A DNA stretch of 14,010 nt from Ignavibacteria bacterium. Its GTDB lineage: Bacteria > Elusimicrobiota > Endomicrobiia > PHAN01. The stretch's first letter is position 1. Each line of letters starts with the position of its first letter. The position numbers were made by a program, and so were the translations under genes. Below, piece after piece: positions 570-13,733 of the stretch. Location: assembly GCA_041694835.1 (NCBI GenBank), contig JBGFRZ010000024.1, positions 1 through 14,010 of the forward strand, in the 5' to 3' direction. The notes under the pieces were generated by a model. The model made no database searches, was not told the DNA's origin, and was given only the letters and a program-made list of their open reading frames with translations.

Positions 570-2642
570 ATGATGGATTCCCCTGTTCAATATCTGAAAG
601 GCGTTGGCCCAGCCCTTGCTAAAAAACTCGCAGCGATGGGAATAAACAACATATCCGATCTTCTCAACTACTATCCTTCGGCGTATCAGGACAGAAGTAG
701 GGCAAAGAAATTTGCGGAGTTAATTGATGGAGAGGACTGCCTTGTATTTGGGAAAGTTGTTGTGAGTGGAATGGTCGAGACCAGATATAACCTTTCAATA
801 TTCAAATGCGCCTTAACCGACGGACATACTTATATATGGATAAATGTTTTCAGATATGTAAATCCGTATAAAAAATTTAACATCTTCCAGAGATACCAGA
901 TGGATTTCAAAAAGGGCAACGAACTTTACGTGTGGGGAACGGTTCAAAAAAAATTCGGCGAAACAAACATAATTTTGAAAGAATACGAACTTATAACAAC
1001 CGAAAGGTCTAAAAATCCGGAAAGAATAACCCCGGTTTATCGTTTAACATCGGGCATTACTCAAAAATGGATAAGGGAAAAGATAGGGATGGCTATTGAG
1101 AAATACGCAGGCAATCTCTCCGAGGTCTGGCCCCAAAAAGGCGACGACTACCTGACACTATACTCCGCGATAAAAAATATCCACTTCCCGGAAAGTTTTG
1201 AAACCCTTGAAAAGGCTCGCAGAACTCTTGCCTTCGATGAATTTATGATTTTTCAGACGACGCTCAAGATGTCGAGGAGCTTCTACAGGGAGAGCGTAAA
1301 AACTCACGGATATCAGATAAAGGGAAACTTACTTTCACCTTTTAGAAAAAACTTAGGATTCGATTTTACATCCTCTCAAAAAAGGGCCATAAACGAGATT
1401 TTCAACGATATGCGTTCGCCGATGCCTATGAACAGAATTCTTATAGGAGATGTTGGATGCGGTAAAACAGCGGTAGCCGTATCGGCGATGTTATTGGCGG
1501 TGGAAAACGGCTATCAAGCCGTTATCATGGCTCCCACGGAAATACTTGCCCAGCAGCATTTCGCCACGCTTAAGAAATATCTTGGTCATCTTGATGTCAA
1601 AGTGGAACTCCTAACTTCATCTGTTCGTGCGAAGAGAAGAAAATATGGGGAAATCCTTCGAAGAATTTCAGAAGGAGAAGTTGATATCGTCGCTGGGACG
1701 CACTCGTTGGCTGAGCCGTCGCCACACTTCGCCAAAGTCAAACTTTTCGTCATAGACGAACAGCATAAATTTGGCGTAAATCAAAGGTTGCGATTGAGGG
1801 AAAAATCACCAACCGCAGATGTGCTTCTTATGTCGGCTACCCCCATCCCGCGGACGCTCGCGCTTACAATTTACGGTGATCTGGCTTTATCCTTCATTAA
1901 AGAAATGCCGCCGGGCAGACTTCCGGTAAAGACATTTTACATGAGGGATACAGAGGCATATGATTTTGTAAAAGATGAATTAAGGAAGGGCAACCAGGCT
2001 TTTATAGTATATCCACTCGTGGAAAACTCTGAAAAACCTGAACTCAAATCGGCGTTCTCCGAAGCTGATAATCTTGCAAAAAACGTATTTAACGAATTCA
2101 AGGTCGGACTTATTTACGGAAAGATGAAATCCGATGAGAAACAAAAAATGATGGAAGATTTCAGGGCAGGTGTTGTCGATGTCCTGATAGCCACAAGCGT
2201 AGTCGAGGTGGGGATAGACATACCTGGTGCAACCGTTCTTGTCGTCGAGCATGCCGAGAGATTTGGTCTTGCGACCCTTCATCAGTTAAGGGGACGCGTT
2301 GCGAGAAGCGACAGTCAGTCATACTGCATTATTGTTGGCGATCCCAAGACGGAAATCGCTCGTGAAAGAATGGAGATACTGCTTAAATACTCGGATGGTT
2401 TCGAAGTGGCGAAGGCCGATTTGAAACAAAGGGGACCGGGTGATATCATAGGCACTTATCAGCATGGTGAGCTTAAGTTCAAAGTCGGCGACATACTGAA
2501 AGATGCCGATCTGGTGGAACTCTCAAACAGTCTTGCGGAAAAAATTGTGGCGGCGGACGGAAATTTAACCGGTTATCCTGCGCTTAAAAGAAAGATATCC
2601 GAAATTTACGGCGGAAGAGTATTTCTCCCGCAGATCGGTTGA
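570..2642 (+). CDS. recG: ATP-dependent DNA helicase RecG
   Basis: N-terminal LKGVGP and OB/wedge region; helicase motifs GDVGCGKT, MAPTEILAQQH, IDEQHKFGV, MSATPIPRTL, ERFGLATLHQLRGRV; TRG motif DLKQRGPGD. Confidence 0.98.
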   Translation: MMDSPVQYLKGVGPALAKKLAAMGINNISDLLNYYPSAYQDRSRAKKFAELIDGEDCLVFGKVVVSGMVETRYNLSIFKCALTDGHTYIWINVFRYVNPYKKFNIFQRYQMDFKKGNELYVWGTVQKKFGETNIILKEYELITTERSKNPERITPVYRLTSGITQKWIREKIGMAIEKYAGNLSEVWPQKGDDYLTLYSAIKNIHFPESFETLEKARRTLAFDEFMIFQTTLKMSRSFYRESVKTHGYQIKGNLLSPFRKNLGFDFTSSQKRAINEIFNDMRSPMPMNRILIGDVGCGKTAVAVSAMLLAVENGYQAVIMAPTEILAQQHFATLKKYLGHLDVKVELLTSSVRAKRRKYGEILRRISEGEVDIVAGTHSLAEPSPHFAKVKLFVIDEQHKFGVNQRLRLREKSPTADVLLMSATPIPRTLALTIYGDLALSFIKEMPPGRLPVKTFYMRDTEAYDFVKDELRKGNQAFIVYPLVENSEKPELKSAFSEADNLAKNVFNEFKVGLIYGKMKSDEKQKMMEDFRAGVVDVLIATSVVEVGIDIPGATVLVVEHAERFGLATLHQLRGRVARSDSQSYCIIVGDPKTEIARERMEILLKYSDGFEVAKADLKQRGPGDIIGTYQHGELKFKVGDILKDADLVELSNSLAEKIVAADGNLTGYPALKRKISEIYGGRVFLPQIG

Positions 2643-2978: not shown

Positions 2979-3458
2979 ATGAAAGTTAAGACAATAACGG
3001 CAGTTTATCCTGGGAGTTTCGACCCTCCGACCAACGGACATATAGATCTTGTCGTGCGCGCTTCGAAGCTGTTTTGCGGCTTGATTGTGGCAGTTACGGA
3101 TAACCAGAACAAAATGCCGAGCTTCCCTCTGGAAAAAAGAATAGAAGTTTTGAAGAGGGCTACGAGAAATATAAGGGGCGTTAAAGTTGAAAGGTTTTCC
3201 GGCCTGCTTGTTAGATATCTCAGAAAAAAAGGCGCGAAAGTGATAATAAGAGGGCTAAGAGCCGTGAGCGACTTTGAGTATGAGTTCCAGCTTGCCCTTA
3301 TGAACAGAAAACTCTACAAGGACATTGAAACGGTTTTTCTGATGCCGGACGAGAAATACGTTTATCTCTCGTCGAGCCTTGTGAGGGAAGTTGCCCGCCT
3401 TGGCGGGGCAATAGATTGTCTCGTGCCCCGAGATGTGAAAAAACTTTTGCGCGGATAA
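2979..3458 (+). CDS. coaD: Phosphopantetheine adenylyltransferase
   Basis: YPGSFDPPTNGH, IIRGLRAVSDFEYEFQLALMNR, YLSSSLVREVA; 159 aa. Confidence 0.98.
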   Translation: MKVKTITAVYPGSFDPPTNGHIDLVVRASKLFCGLIVAVTDNQNKMPSFPLEKRIEVLKRATRNIRGVKVERFSGLLVRYLRKKGAKVIIRGLRAVSDFEYEFQLALMNRKLYKDIETVFLMPDEKYVYLSSSLVREVARLGGAIDCLVPRDVKKLLRG

Positions 3459-3463
3459 TAGTT

Positions 3464-4936
3464 ATGCAAGCTTTTCAACCCATAAAAAAACGTTTAGGCG
3501 ATTTGCTTGTCGAAACAAATCTTATTTCGCGTGAGCAGCTTGCGCAGGCGCTGGAACTTCATAATAAAAAGGGAATCAAACTTGGAAGAGCCCTCCTTGA
3601 ACTTCATTTTGTAACGGAAGATTTGCTTTTGGCTTTTCTCGGAAGGCAGTGCGGAATATCTTATGTATCGCTTAAGGAATGCGGCGAAATACCGGAAAAA
3701 GTGATTCGTGCTATTCCCGAGCATATAGCGAGGCAGTGGGAGATTTTTCCGATAATGCTCAAAGAAAACGAACTCACCATAGCCGTATACGATCCGTTCA
3801 ACGTTTTTGCGCTTGACGACTTGAGACTTCTTACAGGCTATGAAGTCAAAACAGTGATTGCGCCGGTCGATGAGATTAATGCATACATAGACAAATATTA
3901 CATTCAAAGAGGTGTCCCCACCGCAAACTTTCCCGAAAATTTTCTTCATAAAATTGCTTCGTACGGCATAGACATTGGAGCGACTGAGATTTATTTTAGC
4001 GCTAACACGCTCAGATACTTCTTCAACCTCATATATCTCAAAACTGTCGAATTGAGCGACAAAGAAACCGAAATTTTGAATGAAAAAATAGCGGCAATAT
4101 CCGAAAACCCAGGCGAAAAATTCTTTTCTTATCGCGCTCCTTTTTGTAAAACTGAATCGATGAACAAATATTCGCTTGCTCCACGAAATTTCGATAAAAC
4201 ATCTCTCATCAAGATAAAAGACACAACTACTATTCACAAACTTCAGGAGTCAGGTTTCCAGCCGGACGACATACTGATTTTAAACAAACATCTTAACTCA
4301 AGCGATGGCATTATCATAATTTCGGGCGAACCAGGTTCTGCAAAAACAACCACTATGATTTCCATATCGTCCTTGGTGGCCTCAAATCAGGAAATAATCT
4401 ATTTTATTGGCGATGAGGCATCATGTGACATAATACAGAATAAATTCATCATTTTATCGGGTAAGAGTATGGTCGCATTGAACGAGAAGTTCGATTTCAG
4501 CGCGCATTATGTTTTTATAGACGCTCTCGGACGCAATGAAATCGGAATGCTCGACCTGTGGGCCCAGAATTCATGCGTGGTTGTTTCGACTTCCGACGAA
4601 ACGATGAAGATAAAATCGCCACGTCTATACATAAGGCAAAAACTCGTAAGACGCCTTTGTCCCAGGTGCAAGGAAAATTATGTAATATCCAGGGATTATC
4701 TTGTCAACTCCGGGATTCTTCTTGACGTTCAAAGCGATGAAATAATACTTTCAAAAGCGTCGGGCTGCGAGTTCTGCAACTTTACGGGATATTGTGGTAA
4801 AACGCTCGTTTATTTTATGACGGAGGAATACGATAAACTTAAGCATGACCAGATAAAAACAAATATGCTCAAAGTCATGTGGAACAAAGTGCTCGTCGGA
4901 GAAATAACTCTCGAGGAGGTTCTTCTTTACAGATAA
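3464..4936 (+). CDS. PilB/GspE-like protein with MshEN-type N-terminus and degenerate ATPase domain
   Basis: ATG 3464 chosen because it follows the coaD stop. N-terminal tandem RLGDLLV..KLGRALL..LGRQ motif, DPFNVFALDDL, altered Walker A GEPGSAKTT, QKLVRRLCPRC..GCEFC Zn-finger, C-terminal GEITLEEV. It occupies the pilB position of a pilB-pilT-pilC cluster. Confidence 0.85.
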   Translation: MQAFQPIKKRLGDLLVETNLISREQLAQALELHNKKGIKLGRALLELHFVTEDLLLAFLGRQCGISYVSLKECGEIPEKVIRAIPEHIARQWEIFPIMLKENELTIAVYDPFNVFALDDLRLLTGYEVKTVIAPVDEINAYIDKYYIQRGVPTANFPENFLHKIASYGIDIGATEIYFSANTLRYFFNLIYLKTVELSDKETEILNEKIAAISENPGEKFFSYRAPFCKTESMNKYSLAPRNFDKTSLIKIKDTTTIHKLQESGFQPDDILILNKHLNSSDGIIIISGEPGSAKTTTMISISSLVASNQEIIYFIGDEASCDIIQNKFIILSGKSMVALNEKFDFSAHYVFIDALGRNEIGMLDLWAQNSCVVVSTSDETMKIKSPRLYIRQKLVRRLCPRCKENYVISRDYLVNSGILLDVQSDEIILSKASGCEFCNFTGYCGKTLVYFMTEEYDKLKHDQIKTNMLKVMWNKVLVGEITLEEVLLYR

Positions 4937-4938
4937 CT

Positions 4939-6003
4939 ATGCTAAACATGAACGATTTATTGATTCTCATGATAGAAAAAAAAGCATCAGATCTTCACAT
5001 AACGTCCGGCGCGCCCCCTGTTTTGAGAATAGATGGGCAGATGATACCGACAAATTACGAGAAACTGACCCCCGATGTATGTCAGCGCCTGATATACTCG
5101 CTTCTTACTGACGCTCAGAAGGAAAAATTCGAAGCCGTAAATGAGCTGGATTTGTCTTTCGGAATAAAAGGAGTGGGGAGGGTCAGGATGAATGTTTTCA
5201 GGCAGCGCGGCGCCGTCGGCGCGGCATTAAGGTCGATTCCTCAGAAGATAATGACCTTTGAAGAGCTAAATCTTCCGGCGGCGGTTTACGAGATGATGAA
5301 GATACCGAAAGGACTTATACTTGTCACCGGTCCGACGGGTTCCGGAAAATCTACTACCCTTGCGTCCATGATAGATTACCTTAACGAGCATCGCCACGGG
5401 CATATAGTAACGATAGAAGACCCCATTGAATACGTCCACAGCCACAAAAACTGTGTCGTTAATCAAAGGGAGATAGGCTCAGATACGGGAAGTTTTACAG
5501 CCGCCCTGAAATACATCCTCAGGCAGGACCCCAACATAATACTTATCGGCGAGATGAGGGATCTTGAGACGGTACGTGCGGCGTTGACCATAGCTGAAAC
5601 CGGTCACCTCGTTTTGGGCACCCTTCATACAACAGACGCTGTGTCGTCGATAAACAGGATAGTAGACGTTTTCCCGCCACACCAGCAGTCTCAGGTAAGA
5701 AGCCAACTTTCATTCACTCTCCATGCGGTCTTTGCCCAGCAGCTTCTGCCATTGGCCTCGGGTGTTGGAAGGATTCTGGCCTGCGAGGTAATGGTGGTGA
5801 CGCCGGCCATTCAAAACCTGATAAGAGATATGAAAACAGAGCAAATTTATCTCAGCCTTCAGACGGGGGCGAAGTTTGGAATGCAGACAATGAACCAATC
5901 TCTATACGACCTATATAACAAGAAAAAGATAACTTATAATCAAGCCATAGATTCTTCAACGGGACCGGAAGAGCTCAAAAAAATTATACAAAAAACGCTA
6001 TAA
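4939..6003 (+). CDS. pilT: Type IV pilus retraction ATPase PilT
   Basis: ASDLHI, GPTGSGKST, TIEDPIE, RQDPNIILIGEMRD, TGHLVLGTLH, AIQNLIRD (AIRNLIRE motif). Start is 4939 or 4948 rather than 4879. Confidence 0.95.
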   Translation: MLNMNDLLILMIEKKASDLHITSGAPPVLRIDGQMIPTNYEKLTPDVCQRLIYSLLTDAQKEKFEAVNELDLSFGIKGVGRVRMNVFRQRGAVGAALRSIPQKIMTFEELNLPAAVYEMMKIPKGLILVTGPTGSGKSTTLASMIDYLNEHRHGHIVTIEDPIEYVHSHKNCVVNQREIGSDTGSFTAALKYILRQDPNIILIGEMRDLETVRAALTIAETGHLVLGTLHTTDAVSSINRIVDVFPPHQQSQVRSQLSFTLHAVFAQQLLPLASGVGRILACEVMVVTPAIQNLIRDMKTEQIYLSLQTGAKFGMQTMNQSLYDLYNKKKITYNQAIDSSTGPEELKKIIQKTL

Positions 6004-6039: not shown

Positions 6040-7263
6040 ATGCCGCAATTCAACTATAAAGCAAGGCCGCCATCGGGGGCCGTAGTAACTGGAGCGATAG
6101 AAGCCGGCGACATAAGGTCAGCCATGGACAAACTAAAGTCGCAGCGGCTCATTCCCATAGAAGTAAACGAGGCGAAGACTGGTGGAATTTCTGCTTTCAT
6201 AGGAAAAATTAACCCGTTTAAGCCCAGAGTGAAAACAGGCGATGTCGTGCTTTTCTCAAGACAGCTTTCGACGATGGTTTCGGCAGGCGTCCCAATAGTT
6301 CAGGGTCTCAATATCTTATCCGAACAGTTAGAAAACCCGCCTTTCAGGACCGTTGTCGGAGCTGTCAAGGAAGACATAGAGGCCGGAGTTTCTATGCCCG
6401 ATGCAATGAAGAAGCACCCCGATGCTTTTTCGGATCTGTATGTTTCAATGATAAAAGCGGGAGACGAAGGCGGCATACTTGACGCTATCTTGCAGAGGCT
6501 TTCACAGTATATGGAGGCGTCCGAAGAGTTGAAGGCTAAGATAAAAAGCGCGATGACGTATCCAGTTGTCATAGGCGTTATAGCGTTTGCCGTTGTTATA
6601 TTTTTGATGGTTTTTGTTATACCTACTTTCAAAAACATTTTCGCAAGTTTTGGCGCTGAACTTCCGCTCCCTACAAAAATTCTTCTCGCGCTCTCGGCCC
6701 TCACACAAAAAATATTTCCTCTTTTCATAGTTGGCCCTATCGCAGGTTTCTGGGGTTTCAAAAGGCTTAACAAAATCCCGAAGGTAAGGTTTAAGATAGA
6801 CGCTCTCAAACTTAAAGCTCCGATGTTCGGACTTATGCTCAGAAAAGTTGCGATAGCCAAATTTTCAAGAACCCTCGGGACTCTTATAAAAAGCGGCGTG
6901 CCTATAATGCACGCTCTCGACACCGTCGCGAAAACATCGGGCAATATGGTTATAGAAAAGGCGATTTTTGAGGCGCGCGACGAGGTGAAAAAGGGAGAGC
7001 ACATGGTCAATCCTCTTAAGAAAAGCGGCCAGTTCCCACCTATGGTGATACAGATGATATCCGTAGGGGAGCAGACAGGAAACCTCGACACAATGCTTGT
7101 TAAAATTGCCGAGTTTTATGATTCTGAGGTAGATGTGGCTGTTAAAGGTCTTACGAGCATGATAGAACCACTCGTCATGGCCTTTATGGGCATCGTCATA
7201 GGGGGAATAGTCATAGCGATGTTCCTGCCTATGTTTGAAATGAGCCAGCTTGTTTCTAAATAA
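6040..7263 (+). CDS. pilC: Type IV pilus inner-membrane platform protein PilC (GspF family)
   Basis: FSRQLSTMVSAGVP, KIKSAMTYP, FSRTLGTLIKSGVP, GEQTGNLD, MIEP..FLPMF; SD GAGG upstream. Confidence 0.95.
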   Translation: MPQFNYKARPPSGAVVTGAIEAGDIRSAMDKLKSQRLIPIEVNEAKTGGISAFIGKINPFKPRVKTGDVVLFSRQLSTMVSAGVPIVQGLNILSEQLENPPFRTVVGAVKEDIEAGVSMPDAMKKHPDAFSDLYVSMIKAGDEGGILDAILQRLSQYMEASEELKAKIKSAMTYPVVIGVIAFAVVIFLMVFVIPTFKNIFASFGAELPLPTKILLALSALTQKIFPLFIVGPIAGFWGFKRLNKIPKVRFKIDALKLKAPMFGLMLRKVAIAKFSRTLGTLIKSGVPIMHALDTVAKTSGNMVIEKAIFEARDEVKKGEHMVNPLKKSGQFPPMVIQMISVGEQTGNLDTMLVKIAEFYDSEVDVAVKGLTSMIEPLVMAFMGIVIGGIVIAMFLPMFEMSQLVSK

Positions 7264-7413: not shown

Positions 7414-7866
7414 ATGAGAAAATCGAAAGGTTTTACACTCATTGAACTTATGATAGTTGTTGCCATCATCGGTATTCTGTCGGCCATAGCCATTCCCAGA
7501 TTCGCCGATCTGATAAGGAAATCTAACGAGGGAGCCACAAGGGGAAACCTTGCAACGATCAGGAGCTCTCTCTCCATCTACTACTCGGAAAACGAGGGCG
7601 TGTATCCTTCAAATCCAGTGTCGTTGGCGACTCCCTCCGTCGGCGGTGTAGCAGGTAAGTATTTAAAAGAGATACCAAGAGTCAACATACCGCCTTACGG
7701 TGGCACAAACACGTTTAACCTGGCGGCGTCTTCAAACACCAATGGGTTGGGCTGGGGTTATAACCCGAATGTGACTTTCCCGATAGGTATGTCGAGGTCG
7801 CAGGGAGAGGTTTGGGTTGACTCTACGTCCACAGATTCGAAAGGCACGATTTGGAATACCTATTAA
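7414..7866 (+). CDS. pilA: Type IV pilin, probably the major pilin
   Basis: Class III signal MRKSKG|FTLIELMIVVAIIGILSAIAIP. Strong SD AAGGAGGTGA, own promoter and own terminator suggest high expression. Confidence 0.88.
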   Translation: MRKSKGFTLIELMIVVAIIGILSAIAIPRFADLIRKSNEGATRGNLATIRSSLSIYYSENEGVYPSNPVSLATPSVGGVAGKYLKEIPRVNIPPYGGTNTFNLAASSNTNGLGWGYNPNVTFPIGMSRSQGEVWVDSTSTDSKGTIWNTY

Positions 7867-7887
7867 TCTCCAATCGTGTTTATGTTT

Positions 7888-7923
7888 GAAAGGGAGGAGT
7901 TTCACTCCTCCCTTTCTTTTTTT
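7888..7923 (+). terminator. Intrinsic terminator after the pilin gene
   Basis: GAAAGGGAGGAGT-TTC-ACTCCTCCCTTTC (13-bp perfect stem) followed by T7. Confidence 0.9.
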
Positions 7924-7938
7924 GGAATATCTTTAACT

Positions 7939-8706
7939 ATGGAGTTTTTTATTTTTATCTTGGGCTTGGTTTTCGGGTCATTTGCCAATGTCTGTATTTA
8001 CAGGATTCCGAACAACATTTCGATTTTGTCGCCGGCTTCGTCCTGCCCTGGTTGCGCTAACAAGATAAAATGGCACGATAACATACCCATTGTAAGCTAT
8101 GTCATTCTCGCCGGGAAGTGCAGAGTATGCAAAAATAAAATCCCGCTCATATATCCTTTGGTCGAACTCATTACCGCTATCGTTTTTCTATCGGTCTACA
8201 GAAAATTTATTTATTCAGATTTCTCCAATCAAACAATCGGAATAATTTTTTTTCTGCTGTTTACATGGACTCTCATAGTCATTTCAGGCATCGACTTTTA
8301 TCACAGGATAATACCCGATTTTTTTACATATCTTCTTATAGGTGTCGGAGTCCTGTTTTCGCCTTTGAACGACTTTCTCGGACACTCGGTAATCGGAAGA
8401 ATTATCGCTTCGACTTCCGGGGCTTTTGCTGGTCTTTTGTTCGGCATTTCAGTGTCTTTCATAGGCGAAAAGGCATTCAAAAAAGAAGCTTTCGGCGGCG
8501 GTGATGTGAAGCTTATGGCGGCCATCGGAGCATTTTTGGGTTGGTTAGCCGTTTTTAAGACGTTGTTTGTCGCCTCGATGGTGGGAAGTTTTATTTCTAT
8601 CTTCTTGATACTTCTTAAAAGAATAAAGAAGAGCGATTACATACCTTTCGGTCCGCTCCTGTCAGCCGGCGCTTTTTTTGTTTTTTTATTTTTAAAACCC
8701 GCTTGA
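7939..8706 (+). CDS. pilD: Prepilin peptidase/N-methyltransferase PilD
   Basis: GSFANVCIYRIP, CPGC..W.DNIP..SY..L.GKCRVC, catalytic Asp motifs IDFYHRIIPD and GGGDVKL, IPFGP. ATG 7939 chosen because the longer ORF runs through the terminator. Confidence 0.95.
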   Translation: MEFFIFILGLVFGSFANVCIYRIPNNISILSPASSCPGCANKIKWHDNIPIVSYVILAGKCRVCKNKIPLIYPLVELITAIVFLSVYRKFIYSDFSNQTIGIIFFLLFTWTLIVISGIDFYHRIIPDFFTYLLIGVGVLFSPLNDFLGHSVIGRIIASTSGAFAGLLFGISVSFIGEKAFKKEAFGGGDVKLMAAIGAFLGWLAVFKTLFVASMVGSFISIFLILLKRIKKSDYIPFGPLLSAGAFFVFLFLKPA

Positions 8707-8797: not shown

Positions 8798-8871
8798 GCG
8801 CCGTTAGCTCAACTGGATAGAGCGTTTGCCTACGAAGCAAAAGGTTACAGGTTCAAGTCCTGTACGGCGCA
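8798..8871 (+). tRNA. tRNA-Arg (anticodon ACG), CCA not encoded
   Basis: Acceptor GCGCCGT/ACGGCGC, D arm GCTC..GAGC, anticodon arm TTTGC-CTACGAA-GCAAA, T arm ACAGG-TTCAAGT-CCTGT. Confidence 0.97.
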
Positions 8872-9461: not shown

Positions 9462-9817
9462 GGGGGCAAACAGGGTTCGACAGGGGTTTTGAACCTGAAT
9501 GGCAGCAGGCACGGTGTTGGTCGAGGGGCACCGTCAAAAAAATCGACCAAATACAAACGCCAATACAGAAATGGCGATGGCCGCTTAAAATCGGTCACGC
9601 GCTCCTTCCGACACCTGATAGGAGGGGATGCGCGACAAAATCAGGTTAGTTTGTATTCCGCTTGTTCCGTCGGATACAGATGAAATCAAAACGGGGCTGG
9701 CTCGAAGGCGGTTTTAGTCCGGGGACAGTTTTCGAGCGAGAATAATTCCGGAATAAGCCTGTAGAGACCGTTGGGTTGGACTTCTGGACGCGGGTTCGAT
9801 TCCCGCTGCCTCCACCA
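9462..9817 (+). ncRNA. ssrA: tmRNA
   Basis: Acceptor GGGGGCA/TGCCTCC with G3:U wobble and ACCA end; 5' TTCGAC; T arm GCGGG-TTCGATT-CCCGC; tag frame at 9559-9588 reads ANTEMAMAA-stop; 356 nt. Confidence 0.96.
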
Positions 9818-9922: not shown

Positions 9923-10720
9923 ATGTCTGTTGTTTTTTTTGTAAATATCCTTGTGCCTTTAATAGCGGGGCTTACTTATTTCATAATGGCCGCAGAGATT
10001 AAGCGGGTGAGCAAAATCCGAAAGATTATGTTCGGAGAGCTTGGCTACAACAAGGCATTCAACGCTTTTCTTCTTTTCGGGATATATTTTGTAACCAGAC
10101 CTTTGCAGAATTTATTAGGGCATTATCCGTGGCCAATGATAGTAAACTCAGCCCGTCAGTTTTTTTTGATGGCCATAATATCACCTTCGATACTCGTCGG
10201 CATATTCCACTGGGTTCCTCTCGAAAAAGGAACGCCGAGGTCAGCCATTTTAGCTTCATATGTAGTTGGATTTATGATGGCTGTTATTTTCATACTGATA
10301 AATTCCATAGCTGTTGATGGCTCGAAAATTTTGACCACCTTTTGGGGAATAAACATACACGACGCCAAGTGGTTTTCAGAAGGCCCGGTTAACGTTCATC
10401 TCGTTGTGGTCCATTTGATTTCCCAGCTTGTCTCTCCCGTAGGTTTTTTTCTTCTTGCCGCAGCCTATGTTCGTCACCGTCGATATAACTATCCCACGGA
10501 TTCCATATACAATCTGATGCCATTGAAATGGAAATATCTGGAGACGGGCCTTCTGATTTTTGCTGTTTCGATGATTTTCGCTGGTCTTGCCGCGTTTTTG
10601 GGTCAGTACTACACTTATTTGTGGGTGATATATTTTGTCGGAGCCACCATCTCCGGAATAGTTGAATTGTTAGGTGTCAAAATCCCCCCGAGGCAACCCC
10701 CACCGGAACTTAGAACATAA
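9923..10720 (+). CDS. Hypothetical integral membrane protein, about 7 TM helices
   Basis: 265-aa ORF with GGAG 8 nt upstream and seven hydrophobic segments by eye. No family recognised. Confidence 0.85.
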   Translation: MSVVFFVNILVPLIAGLTYFIMAAEIKRVSKIRKIMFGELGYNKAFNAFLLFGIYFVTRPLQNLLGHYPWPMIVNSARQFFLMAIISPSILVGIFHWVPLEKGTPRSAILASYVVGFMMAVIFILINSIAVDGSKILTTFWGINIHDAKWFSEGPVNVHLVVVHLISQLVSPVGFFLLAAAYVRHRRYNYPTDSIYNLMPLKWKYLETGLLIFAVSMIFAGLAAFLGQYYTYLWVIYFVGATISGIVELLGVKIPPRQPPPELRT

Positions 10721-10838
10721 AACTATATCCTGAAAATTGGTATAAATATCAGGGCCAGATATGAAATAAGCATTGCGACAATACCGACGACATCGCCTAT
10801 TCTCAGCCAGCTTTTGAAGGCGATTTTAATATTTAAGG

Positions 10839-11010
10839 TCTGCTGATCCCGCCAAGGCGGGACTAAAATGCTAAAAATTCGAGCACTACAACTTAAACCT
10901 TTTACCCCGTTAGAAAAATCCTTTCTAACGGGGCACAGCAGAGACACTGGGAAAAATGAGGTAATTCAAGAACTACCCCGATTGTCATCGGGACAGGCTC
11001 CGAAATTACC
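10839..11010. repeat. Cluster of REP-like palindromes
   Basis: TCCCGCC-AA-GGCGGGA (10847-10862), CCCCGTTAGAAA-AATCC-TTTCTAACGGGG (10905-10933), CCCGAT-TGTC-ATCGGG (10977-10992). Enclosing pairs are TCTGCTG/CAGCAGA and GGTAATT/AATTACC. Confidence 0.7.
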
Positions 11011-11019
11011 GACGGAGAT

Positions 11020-11048
11020 TTGCAGAAAACGGCGATTTGTTGTATAAT
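11020..11048 (+). promoter_or_regulatory. Sigma70 promoter for tRNA-Ser
   Basis: TTGCAG (11020-11025), 17 bp, TATAAT (11043-11048), 11 nt before the tRNA. Confidence 0.7.
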
Positions 11049-11059
11049 TTAAAACAAAA

Positions 11060-11151
11060 GGAGAGGTCGCCTAGCGGCTTAGGGCGGCGGTTTGCTAAAC
11101 CGCTATCTCGATAAATCGGGATCGGGGGTTCGAATCCCCCCCTCTCCGCCA
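11060..11151 (+). tRNA. tRNA-Ser (anticodon GCT)
   Basis: Acceptor GGAGAGG/CCTCTCC plus GCCA; anticodon arm GCGGT-TTGCTAA-ACCGC; long variable arm; T arm GGGGG-TTCGAAT-CCCCC. Confidence 0.97.
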
Positions 11152-11335
11152 AGACCGACAAAGTAATAGAATGAAGTTTTTCGTCGATATCTTCCAAAAA
11201 CAATATTAAATTGTCAATTTTTATTTCCCACGGAGTTCCGAGCGAAGTATCATCATATTGAAATTAAAAGTACTGAAAAAAGTCATTAGCCATCGAAATC
11301 ATGAATGCTCGCTGAAATTTACAAAACCATATTTA

Positions 11336-11550
11336 TTTAGGACGCAGATTTACAGGATTGTCGCAGATAAAAAACCTCTTAACCACTCGGATTAAGTGGT
11401 GAGAATTAAGAAAAAAAACTTGGTTCTTAATTCTGTTTTTTCTGCGTATATCTGCGTTCAATTAGTTTTTAGGACGCAGATTTACAAGATGAACGCAAAT
11501 AATTCTTAAATCCTGTTGTTTCTGCGTTCATCTGCGTCCCATCAGTTTTT
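11336..11550. repeat. Two tandem self-complementary units built from ACGCAGAT-type nonamers
   Basis: TTTAGGACGCAGATTTACA is identical at 11336-11354 and 11468-11486. Each unit closes with ATCTGCGT(T/C)C (11450-11459, 11530-11539), complementary to its GGACGCAGAT start. Confidence 0.85.
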
Positions 11551-11648
11551 GTCGGGACAAATTTTGTGGCAATGTTTTTTTGTTCGTGTTAATTCGTAGT
11601 TACTGATGGTTCCAATTTTTTTACGGAGAGATGTGTAATCTAAATGAT

Positions 11649-12785
11649 ATGCACCAATTCAAATTAAACGAAACTTTTAAGAAAAAGTGTCTGAAATTTT
11701 TGACGACACTCATCTCAACAAAAAGTTTATCAAATGGCGAAAAATCCGCCGCGAAACTCGTCGCCGGAGAAATGAAGAAACTCGGCTACGACAGTGTGGC
11801 AATCGATGAGTGTCACAATGTGGTGGGAAAAATAGGAAACGGAAAAACAAAGCTCCTCTATGACGCTCACACGGATACCGTGGGCGTAGGCGATGAAAAT
11901 CTATGGAAAACTGACCCGTTCAAAGCAGTTATCAAAAATGGCAAAGTTTACGGCAGGGGCGCTTCCGACGACAAGGGTTGTGTCGCAGCGATGCTCTATG
12001 CGGGCGCTCTGCTCAAAAAACAAGAGCAGCCCGGCGATTTCACTTTGCTTGTTTCTGCGTCGGCGAAAGAGGAAATCGGCGGCAGAGAGTGGCTCAGATT
12101 TATAGTCAAGGATTTGAAGTTCAAACCGGACTTCGTCGTCATCGGCGAGCCGTCGGCGTTAAAAATAATTTACGGACACAAAGGCAGAGCGGAATTTAAA
12201 ATCAATGTAAAAGGCAAAGCGGTTCATGCAAGTATTCCACAAGAAGGTGAGAATGCAATTTATAAATCAATTCCAATTATCGAAAAAATTAAAAAACTAA
12301 ATTTATCTCTCAAAACAGGAAAACTCGGCAAAGGGGTTATTACCGTCACAAAAATAGAAACCAATTCGCCGTCAATCAACTCAATTCCTGAAAGTTGTTC
12401 GTTTTACATAGACAGAAGAACGATTGAGGGGGAAAACAAAAAATATGTCGTCAAACAAATTAAAAAACTTTTGGATAAAAATGGAAAAATTGAATATGGA
12501 AAATATTATACCCCCTGGCTTATGGATAAAAAATCTCAACTTCTCATAGCCGCCCAAAAAACATTTATTGAGTCGTTTGGCAAAAAACCAAAAATGGTCG
12601 TCTGGCCTTTTTGCACCAATGGGTCATTTACCATGGGGGACAAAAAAATTCCAACAATAGGTTTTGGTCCGGGTTCAGAAAAACAGGCACATACAGCAAA
12701 CGAGTCGATTGAAATTTCCGAACTTTTTGACGCAATAAAATTTTATTCATATCTTCCTCCAGTGCTTTGTGACAGAAATAGTTGA
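11649..12785 (+). CDS. M20-family metallohydrolase, YgeY-like
   Basis: YDAHTDTV, GRGASDDKG, KEE, GEPS, VHAS, FCTNG, IPTIGFGPG.E..AH. Start is 11631 or 11649. Confidence 0.88.
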   Translation: MHQFKLNETFKKKCLKFLTTLISTKSLSNGEKSAAKLVAGEMKKLGYDSVAIDECHNVVGKIGNGKTKLLYDAHTDTVGVGDENLWKTDPFKAVIKNGKVYGRGASDDKGCVAAMLYAGALLKKQEQPGDFTLLVSASAKEEIGGREWLRFIVKDLKFKPDFVVIGEPSALKIIYGHKGRAEFKINVKGKAVHASIPQEGENAIYKSIPIIEKIKKLNLSLKTGKLGKGVITVTKIETNSPSINSIPESCSFYIDRRTIEGENKKYVVKQIKKLLDKNGKIEYGKYYTPWLMDKKSQLLIAAQKTFIESFGKKPKMVVWPFCTNGSFTMGDKKIPTIGFGPGSEKQAHTANESIEISELFDAIKFYSYLPPVLCDRNS

Positions 12786-12834
12786 GCATTTTGGTTCGTT
12801 AAATTGTAGCCGCAACGCTCTCCCTTCCCAATGG

Positions 12835-13733
12835 TGTAAGAAATCGTCGCGTTGTTTACAGTTCTGATGAAGTGGTATAATAACCACAAGGAGGTCTGTA
12901 AACAGCGATATGGTAATACACAAAAGGGCACGCCTGACACCCTTACAACGTCAGGAGATCTTTGACAAATACAAGCAAGGCGCTCGTATCTGCGAACTTG
13001 CCGCAACTACAATGTCAGCCGTCCAACGATTTACAAAATAGTTTATCGTGGACGAAGTGGTGACTTTTATCACCACAAAAGCATTAACAAACGTTATCGG
13101 TGTCTAAAATATGGCATCAAGCGTTTAGCAAAGATAGAAGTAGTTCTTGAAGCCAAACTAAAAGCCGAAGCGCTCAGATACAACAAAAGTTATCCGGGCG
13201 AAATGTTTCACGGCGATATAGTTGCTCTGCCGTTACTTGCTGGAGAATCGTCAACGACAAAGCCCGAATACCTTTACATTGCCGTGGATGATTATTCCCG
13301 GGAACTCTATGCTCAGGTACTACATGAGAAAAGTCAACACTGCTCCGCCGAGTTTCTAAAACAAGTTCTTGACGAATGCCCTTACACGATAGAATGCTAC
13401 TACACTGACAACGGCAGGGAGTATCAAGGCAATCCGTCAAAGCATGAGTTTATGAAGCTCTGTCAGGAAAACCGCATAGAGCAAACGTTCACCATGCCCA
13501 AAACACCTCGCACAAACGGGAAGGCCGAACGTACAATTAGAACTATCAAAGAACTTTGTCATCGTAGAACGAGATTCAACAGCCGTGCGCACAGAAAAAC
13601 AGAACTTGTGCGTTTTGTTAATTATTACAACTCTGTCAAACCCCACAAAGGTATCGATGGTTTGACACCCACAGAGAAACTTTTAGAGTACTTTTATCCC
13701 GAAAAACTGTAAACAACGCGACGATTTCTCACA
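12835..13733 (+). mobile_element. IS481-family insertion sequence, 899 bp
   Basis: 29-bp terminal inverted repeats TGTAAGAAATCGTCGCGTTGTTTACAGTT (12835-12863) and AACTGTAAACAACGCGACGATTTCTCACA (13705-13733), 1 mismatch, TGT..ACA ends; encloses an rve-type transposase. Confidence 0.9.
12910..13712 (+). pseudogene. IS481-family DDE transposase with a -1 frameshift near 13001
   Basis: MVIHKRARLTP..RICELA from 12910 continues in the -1 frame as RNYNVSRPTIYK (HTH)..YPGEMFHGD..AVDDYSR..YTDNGREY..PRTNGKAER..YYN. The stop codon lies inside the right terminal repeat. Confidence 0.85.

Follow-up and report, generated by a model that had tools for sequence, protein, structure and literature searches.

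Can a type IVa pilus machine run without a dedicated extension ATPase? The question is raised by a stretch of 14,010 nucleotides of contig JBGFRZ010000024.1 (assembly GCA_041694835.1, deposited as Ignavibacteria bacterium and placed by GTDB in the Elusimicrobiota, Endomicrobiia, PHAN01), referred to below as the window, in which the place of pilB ahead of pilT and pilC is taken by an intact gene for a 490-residue protein, P0001. PilB is regarded as the motor without which type IVa pili cannot be extended, and no part of it is normally as well conserved as the ATPase core. The lineage studied here keeps the operon, PilT, the platform protein, the pilin and the prepilin peptidase, while the protein in the pilB slot appears to have lost catalysis and to have kept its sensor and zinc modules. 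We hold with high confidence that P0001 is a dead enzyme and a living protein; what it does at the pilus is argued below with less assurance.

The gene and the parts of its product were delimited as follows, the coordinates being those of the window.

3464..4936, plus strand: pilB-derived pseudo-ATPase gene (P0001), assigned from the intact open reading frame (ORF), the pilB synteny and the score of the PilB equivalog model.
3491..3649, plus strand: N1a, tandem 24-residue MshEN motifs for cyclic dimeric GMP (c-di-GMP; residues 10-33 and 39-62), assigned with NF053729.
3650..3910, plus strand: N1b, second half of the MshEN/GSPII domain (residues 63-149), assigned with Pfam MshEN over 65-149.
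3911..4249, plus strand: N2-like domain without the arginine-finger segment (residues 150-262), assigned from alignments and from the fold in both structure models.
4250..4618, plus strand: degenerate ATPase core (residues 263-385), assigned from alignments.
4619..4819, plus strand: tetracysteine zinc module (residues 386-452; C399, C402, C435 and C438), assigned from the alignment and matches in the PDB.
4820..4933, plus strand: shortened C-terminal helices (residues 453-490), assigned from the alignment.

The ORF encodes 490 amino acids followed by TAA and contains zero internal stops; translation and operon order agree with an earlier note on this DNA, which had described an uninterrupted frame in the pilB slot ahead of pilT-pilC. 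The ATG at 3464 lies 5 nucleotides from the stop codon of coaD and corresponds to the start position of the N-termini of seven homologs, and the stop codon of P0001 is 2 nucleotides from the ATG of pilT at 4939. A start at TTG 3416 was rejected: it would overlap coaD, and the homolog N-termini favour the ATG. Within the 236 codons of the degenerate core no stop occurs in frame, whereas the two alternative forward frames contain 16 and 14, and the purine bias at the first codon position resembles that of the neighbouring genes. Because the frame is stop-free and the first-position bias is normal, the core is coding sequence and not noise. A sequencing or assembly frameshift was likewise rejected as the cause of the degeneracy, as no frame change was found and the pattern is common to seven independent relatives. 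An antisense ORF (3494-4237, minus strand, 247 amino acids) lies inside the gene; it is long for a region of 41-44% G+C and is probably a shadow ORF.

Motifs were placed in P0001 by alignment to canonical PilBs of Elusimicrobiota, and the motif table of its family was drawn up from a MAFFT alignment. The Walker A motif is GPTGSGKS in the canonical protein of locus L001 and GEPGSAKT in P0001 (residues 288-295, nucleotides 4325-4348), where Ala replaces the Gly before the Lys and the pattern GxxxxGK[ST] is not matched; across the eight family members the site is variable, and the Lys is missing in one. The Asp box is TIEDPVE in L001 and FIGDEAS in P0001 (residues 314-320), Walker B is DPNIIMVGEIRD in L001 and SAHYVFIDALGR in P0001 (AHYVFIDALG being residues 347-356), and the His box is GHLVFSTLHTN in L001 and NSCVVVSTSDE in P0001 (QNSCVVVSTSD being residues 368-378). 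At the aligned catalytic positions of P0001 the acidic pair, GE.RD and the His are all absent. The arginine segment of N2, ERRLPQDGRIK in L001, is deleted in P0001-P0006 and unalignable in P0007 and P0008. The motif strings quoted in the earlier note are all present, each opposite the canonical motif to which it had been assigned, and the proper alignment that the note had set as its test shows none of the catalytic Glu, His and Arg residues. Its description of the 'RIDG' region as unrecognisable went too far, since LRYFF aligns with the canonical RVRYR and the region can be recognised in part; it is the RLPQDGR-type arginine segment that is missing. With these motifs lost, P0001 very probably cannot hydrolyse ATP.

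The zinc module presents a different picture. Its four cysteines, which lie in the motifs CPRC (399-402) and CEFC (435-438), occur without exception in all 42 aligned sequences, and the canonical CxxC...CxxC pattern is retained. The C-terminus carries a deletion of about 13 residues relative to canonical PilBs, and the whole protein is about 90 residues shorter than these; residues W473, G479, E480, E484 and E485 are invariant across the family.

Profile searches divided the protein in the same way. Pfam MshEN (PF05157) matched P0001 with an E value of 2.9e-17, and T2SSE matched weakly (59 bits, best stretch 254-334), which is the outcome of the hidden Markov model check that the earlier note had proposed. 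The PilB equivalog model TIGR02538 has a cutoff of 675.65 bits; P0001 scored 117.8 bits with it and seven relatives 82-139 bits, all below the cutoff, compared with 699 and 723 bits for the canonical P0009 and P0023 and 421.6 bits for the partly degenerate P0032. Against sequences in the PDB, residues 9-149 of P0001 scored about 93 bits to the Geobacter and Myxococcus PilBs; the scores fell to about 25 bits for the zinc region, against PilB/GspE, and to about 10 bits for the core.

Seven full-length relatives, P0002-P0008, were found in a search of 5.8 billion protein clusters (37-57% identity to P0001). All eight family members (481-596 residues) are intact and all are without the catalytic motifs. 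Source names are attached to two of the seven, one an Elusimicrobia and the other an Endomicrobiia metagenome-assembled genome (MAG). The canonical PilBs of 582 residues come next, at about 30% identity to P0001. An exhaustive search of 1.84 billion representatives at 50% identity with a profile of the family returned four above 680 bits, the next scoring 346 bits; the family is narrow. The earlier note had named fragmented relatives as the sign of a simple pseudogene. The seven relatives are intact, and no fragment of the family was found among the 142 other listed representatives, for which the highest N1 identity was 53%. No member of the P0001-P0008 family was found among the at least 599 stretches of species-representative genomes.

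Conservation was compared domain by domain as mean pairwise identity, within the P0001 family and within nine canonical orthologs. Protein identity was the measure used, since the related loci, at about 30% identity in protein, are saturated at synonymous sites. For N1a, the region of the c-di-GMP motifs, the values are 75.7% in the family and 74.6% in the canonical proteins; for N1b, 65.1 and 71.4%; for the N2-like domain, 32.2 and 71.4%; for the core of the C-terminal domain (CTD), 31.8 and 86.9%; for the zinc module, 55.0 and 61.0%; and for the C-terminus, 42.6 and 66.0%. Between the family and canonical PilBs the N2-like domain is 12% identical. By these figures the hierarchy of constraint is inverted: the core ranks first in conservation among the parts of the real motor and last in the P0001 family. 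The identities indicate that N1 and the zinc module are maintained under selection. The core appears not to be free of constraint either, having gained new invariant residues specific to the family; the core (150-385) has 15 invariant residues and the stretch 386-490 has 22, and family-invariant strings such as YLKT, IKI, RLY.R, Y.VS.DY..N and W.K...GE...EE have no counterpart in the aligned canonical sequences.

The neighbouring genes identify the position of P0001. The conserved block around it is made up of the following features.

570..2642, plus strand: recG, a conserved upstream neighbour, found upstream in 7 of 18 loci.
2979..3458, plus strand: coaD (TIGR01510, 188.4 bits), upstream of pilB in 9 of 18 loci.
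4939..6003, plus strand: pilT, canonical retraction ATPase (TIGR01420, 497.7 bits).
6040..7263, plus strand: pilC, platform protein (PilC/GspF models; Pfam T2SSF).
7414..7866, plus strand: type IV pilin, pilA (N_methyl motif).
7876..8706, plus strand: prepilin peptidase, pilD (Pfam A24_N_bact and Peptidase_A24).

The order recG-coaD-pilB-pilT-pilC-pilA-pilD recurs in loci of Elusimicrobiota. It was examined in 18 related loci from species-representative genomes, most of the exceptions being contigs that are cut short; pilT directly follows pilB in 13 of the 18, and L001, L005, L011, L014 and L015 are among the loci that share the order. PilT of the window is 62-77% identical to PilT of the related loci. 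Because it sits in the pilB slot of a conserved operon, P0001 is the positional ortholog of PilB, and it is apparently co-expressed with pilT, pilC, pilA and pilD.

The proteins found in the pilB slot of these loci form a graded series. Those of L001-L007, L009, L010 and L012 are canonical (L008 is cut by the contig end). Those of L013, L014, L015 (P0032) and L017 are partly degenerate, with an intact Walker A motif, a weakened Asp box, the His-box histidines lost and the arginine segment altered. Those of L011 and L016 are strongly degenerate, and the P0001 family is fully degenerate and shortened. A maximum-likelihood tree of concatenated RecG, CoaD, PilT and PilC placed the window with L011, L013, L014 and L015 (bootstrap and Shimodaira-Hasegawa-like approximate likelihood-ratio support 99/98), with L016 and L017 as a separate pair (100/100). 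Because of this grouping of the flanking genes, the erosion of PilB is dated to before the P0001 family within its clade, and it may have happened twice. P0001 is, by these comparisons, the end point of a stepwise, clade-wide erosion of PilB and not a lone pseudogene.

In the Elusimicrobia locus L016 (CAYZXT010000045.1, positions 9956-12973) pilC comes immediately after the strongly degenerate gene in the pilB slot and pilT is missing from its usual place between the two, which leaves this operon without a working extension motor and without a retraction motor. Among the 150 best matches of the family profile, many clusters at 50% identity lack several catalytic residues and keep the zinc CxxC motifs; MshEN-bearing examples are P0122, P0125, P0127, P0134, P0155, P0171, P0233 and P0262. 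This list is biased by the query toward degenerate proteins, and the most degenerate cores (P0004-P0006 and P0008) are not aligned in it. Degenerate PilBs may be much more widespread than the P0001 family.

An AlphaFold2 (AF2) model of P0001 was calculated from a 42-sequence alignment that contained canonical PilBs. It has a predicted local distance difference test score (pLDDT) of 84.1 and a predicted template modelling (TM) score of 0.79, with a pLDDT of about 90 in the P-loop region (residues 280-300), and it matches GspE (PDB 4pht) as well as PilB (PDB 5tsh), the latter with TM scores of 0.52/0.64 at 17% identity. A control model from the eight family members alone has a pLDDT of 70.9 and the same secondary structure over residues 1-376; its N1 domain superimposes on that of MshE bound to c-di-GMP (PDB 5htl) with a TM score of 0.86 and a root-mean-square deviation of 2.2 A at 36% identity, and its core still matches GspE, PilB and DotB. 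Language-model features for residues 150-490 fell into T2SSE clusters alone (0.94), with no alternative family. P0001 is predicted on these models to keep the PilB/GspE fold. A complex prediction with two copies of residues 150-490, run without controls, scored 0.00 and is given no weight either way.

The N1a region was compared with Vibrio cholerae MshE (VcMshE), whose ligand contacts are R9, L10, G11, D12, L25, L29 and Q32 in the first motif and R38, L39, G40, D41, L54, L58 and Q61 in the second (PMC5013675, in part). The numbering of P0001 is offset by +1, and its tandem motifs, together residues 10-62, are separated by a 5-residue linker. Ten of the 12 side-chain contacts are identical (the equivalents of R9, L10, G11, L25, L29, L39, G40, L54, L58 and Q61), and the equivalent of D12 is also kept. 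The two contact changes are R38 to Lys39, which the published pattern allows, and Q32 to His33. In XpsE, c-di-GMP binding was lost through changes at contact positions (PMC5013675, in part); none of the non-binding substitutions of XpsE is present in P0001. The turn glycines G18 and G47 are replaced by N19 and H48, which bears out the deviation at conserved Gly positions reported in the earlier note and places it off the ligand, as these glycines make only helix turns in VcMshE and have no ligand contact (Wang et al., 2016; PMC5013675, in part). The relaxed pattern [RKPN]hGxxhhxx[GAS]hhxxxxhxxxhxx[QNKRYWST] (PMC5013675, in part) was applied as a regular expression. P0001 fails it in both half-sites (N19 and H33 in the first, H48 in the second), and the canonical and partly degenerate orthologs pass it wherever the motif was located. 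With NF053729 for the 53-residue c-di-GMP motif domain (cutoff 38), P0001 scored 58.4 bits and all eight family members passed (55.7-62 bits), compared with 68.7-74.1 bits in canonical PilBs. Binding of c-di-GMP by P0001 is plausible on these residues, at about an even chance or a little better; contact with another protein would explain the strong conservation of N1a just as well.

We consider it probable, with some reserve, that P0001 is an orthologous descendant of PilB turned pseudo-ATPase and kept as a non-catalytic scaffold or regulator at the pilus machine. On the cytoplasmic side of that machine N1 would bind the alignment/stator proteins and the core would bind PilC; docked in this way, and perhaps under the control of c-di-GMP acting on N1a, P0001 would serve as a scaffold or gate with no catalysis of its own. 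In that position it may control the access of a working motor, either PilT or an extension ATPase encoded elsewhere; alternatively, it may relay a pilus or c-di-GMP signal. The energy for pilus extension would then be supplied by another ATPase. Several reports on PilB are relevant here. The N1 domain of PilB-type ATPases is described as a likely contact of the stator/alignment complex, and the zinc motif as essential (PMC11656802, in part), the binding sites for c-di-GMP and ADP in PilB influence each other allosterically (PMC6957770, in part), and in Myxococcus xanthus an ATPase-deficient PilB still signals for the production of exopolysaccharide (EPS), the nucleotide-free form having been proposed as the signalling state (PMC5544727, in part). 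The non-catalytic regulator of the earlier note is upheld to the extent that P0001 is a PilB derivative without catalytic apparatus that is maintained in eight intact members; the c-di-GMP binding attached to it stays a proposal.

Several observations weigh against this reading. None of the eight family members matches the relaxed pattern in both half-sites; each failure involves the turn position, where N, K or H is found, and a His occupies the position of Gln32 in P0001 and P0002. The Lys-Thr of Walker A is kept in P0001, and K[ST] in seven of eight members, so that nucleotide binding or an unconventional activity is possible. The first AF2 model leans to the canonical fold through the canonical PilBs in its alignment, and the zinc module is poorly predicted in the family-only model (pLDDT 29-45). 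The family itself is tiny (the four representatives above 680 bits among 1.84 billion) and every member is metagenomic.

The main rival would make P0001 an accessory subunit that enters dominant-negative or mixed hexamers, or competes for PilC, and so tunes, in response to c-di-GMP, a canonical PilB that is encoded elsewhere and powers extension; we regard it as rather unlikely. The PilB-like fold retained in the models would suit such a role, interactions between type IV pilus ATPases have been reported from two-hybrid work and a pair of extension ATPases works together in Acinetobacter baylyi (PMC11656802, in part), and Tad systems have been described in Elusimicrobia (PMC6668835, in part), which makes further secretion-type ATPases plausible. 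Against it stands the position of the gene. The earlier note had envisaged P0001 as a subunit beside a real PilB, and this part of its proposal gives way: P0001 is no added copy and fills the ancestral pilB slot of a conserved operon, as the extreme of a clade-wide degeneration series. For the six assemblies with a degenerate PilB (L011 and L013-L017), no second PilB locus was found among the 80 loci kept of at least 599 stretches, in which only PilBs that carry the N1 motif were detectable. With the canonical PilB core of L006 as the query, the best 120 of 8000 matches were all canonical PilBs of Elusimicrobia type under generic names; none was named as Endomicrobiia or Endomicrobiales or as the MAG of P0004, and none could be assigned to a MAG of any family member, names being sparse among them. 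The deletion of the arginine segment that canonical PilBs have in N2 also counts against this rival. In other PilB/GspE ATPases that segment acts across subunits, and if the same is true here, every P0001 subunit would be a point of impairment in a mixed ring.

If there is no second PilB, the clade of Endomicrobiales type might have no PilB motor at all, with PilT, the one working ATPase of the operon, powering both extension and retraction and the pseudo-PilB serving as an adaptor or switch, perhaps gated by c-di-GMP, that sets the direction of the machine or decides whether PilT can engage PilC. This arrangement seems to us improbable, but it is compatible with the catalytic compromise of all pilB-slot proteins of the clade, with the conservation of pilT, pilC, pilA and pilD and with the absence of a second PilB among the loci kept for the six related assemblies; in Tad systems a single ATPase, CpaF, powers extension and retraction (PMC11656802, in part). 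We think it just as doubtful that P0001 has become a c-di-GMP receptor detached from the pilus, passing on c-di-GMP or its own conformational state to EPS or biofilm control, for example. The EPS signalling of ATPase-deficient M. xanthus PilB proceeds without pili (PMC5544727, in part), N1a is the best-conserved part of the family and NF053729 is passed by all eight members, but the gene is tightly packed in the pilus operon, its stop codon 2 nucleotides from the start of pilT, and N1b and the zinc module, which are pilus-machine parts of PilB, are likewise conserved. The changes of the turn glycines cast doubt on c-di-GMP binding, and no Dif-like partner is found among the genes of the window. 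A working ATPase with non-canonical catalytic residues could draw on the retained Walker A Lys-Thr and the confidently modelled P-loop, but P0001 has no Asp box, no Walker B acid or catalytic Glu, neither of the two His-box histidines and no arginine segment, what stands in their place varies across the eight members, one of which is without the Walker A Lys, and identity in the CTD core is 32% in the family compared with 87% in true PilBs; we give this alternative very little credence. Equally hard to credit is a non-functional relic, a pseudogene that has so far acquired no stop. The catalytic motifs are gone, the protein is shortened by about 90 residues, the family is rare and the related locus L016 is also without pilT in its operon, yet the eight intact orthologs have diverged to 37-57% identity, conservation is domain-specific with N1a at the canonical level, invariant residues specific to the family are present and the core frame is free of stops.

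The resemblance of P0001 to known systems is closest for PilBs with an MshEN N-terminus (Geobacter metallireducens, PDB 5TSH and 6OLJ; M. xanthus; P0009 and P0023), which share its operon position, its domain order (MshEN, N2, CTD and zinc module) and the four zinc cysteines. P0001 differs from them in its altered Walker A motif, in the loss of the other catalytic motifs and in having the core as its least instead of its most conserved part. Its N1 domain is like that of VcMshE (PDB 5HTL) in the tandem motifs and in most contact residues and unlike it in the replaced turn glycines. The PilBs of Endomicrobiales type (L011 and L013-L017) occupy the same operon slot and keep the zinc module, those of L011 and L013-L015 belong to the same clade, and all share with P0001 a varied loss of the His-box histidines and the arginine segment. 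Unlike P0001, they are of full length (542-573 residues), mostly have an intact Walker A motif and have MshEN motifs that pass the relaxed pattern, and several keep the Walker B Glu. The engineered ATPase-deficient PilB of M. xanthus (PMC5544727, in part) has an N-terminal c-di-GMP motif, does not drive assembly and gives a regulatory output; it was made in the laboratory by point mutation of a working motor, whereas P0001 is natural and long diverged, with wholesale loss of the catalytic site.

No description of a natural, catalytically dead PilB ortholog was found in the literature searched, which was mostly without subscription journals, and sections 11 and 12 of a 2024 review of PilB (PMC11656802) do not mention one. 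The literature on pili or c-di-GMP in Endomicrobia and Elusimicrobia yielded nothing specific on PilB; in the Endomicrobiaceae, pilins are reported as the sole appendage genes (PMC11257099, in part). Because catalysis appears to be lost and the sensor and zinc modules are kept, the lineage of P0001 offers a natural experiment on the roles of PilB beyond the use of ATP (docking, signalling and c-di-GMP sensing), and the graded series of orthologs traces an evolutionary path whose steps are accessible to tests on the individual proteins. Domain-based pipelines could count proteins of this type as a working pilus motor, because both PilB-type Pfam domains are present.

Downstream of pilD the window continues, in order, with a tRNA-Arg, tadA, a tmRNA, a membrane ORF, a tRNA-Ser, an M20/YgeY hydrolase and an IS481-type transposase ORF. 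The tRNA-Arg(ACG) is the one whose anticodon is edited by the tadA deaminase. Those that were delimited are the following.

8798-8871, plus strand: tRNA-Arg(ACG), directly upstream of tadA.
9462-9817, plus strand: tmRNA with the tag ANTEMAMAA, downstream of the pilus operon.
9923-10720, plus strand: predicted membrane protein of 265 residues, with no Pfam or NCBIfam match.
11060-11151, plus strand: tRNA-Ser(GCT), downstream of the pilus operon.
13203-13712, plus strand: IS481-family transposase ORF, a 5'-truncated integrase core near the window end.

The transposase ORF covers profile positions 131-282 of 284, which suggests that it is the remnant of an insertion sequence.

Two of the related loci call for comment. 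In L018 (CAWKAR010000027.1, positions 9929-11772, candidate division FCPU426) the PilB match is split between two overlapping frames, 9929-10612 and 10315-11772; the pilB is canonical in other respects, and the split points to a frameshift or an error in the assembly. L012 (JAUXBS010000065.1) is labelled 'Clostridia bacterium' and carries a pilB-pilT-pilC-pilA block very close to those of Elusimicrobiota, with PilT 67% and PilC 54% identical to those of the window; a fault of binning or labelling, or else transfer of the genes, may explain this.

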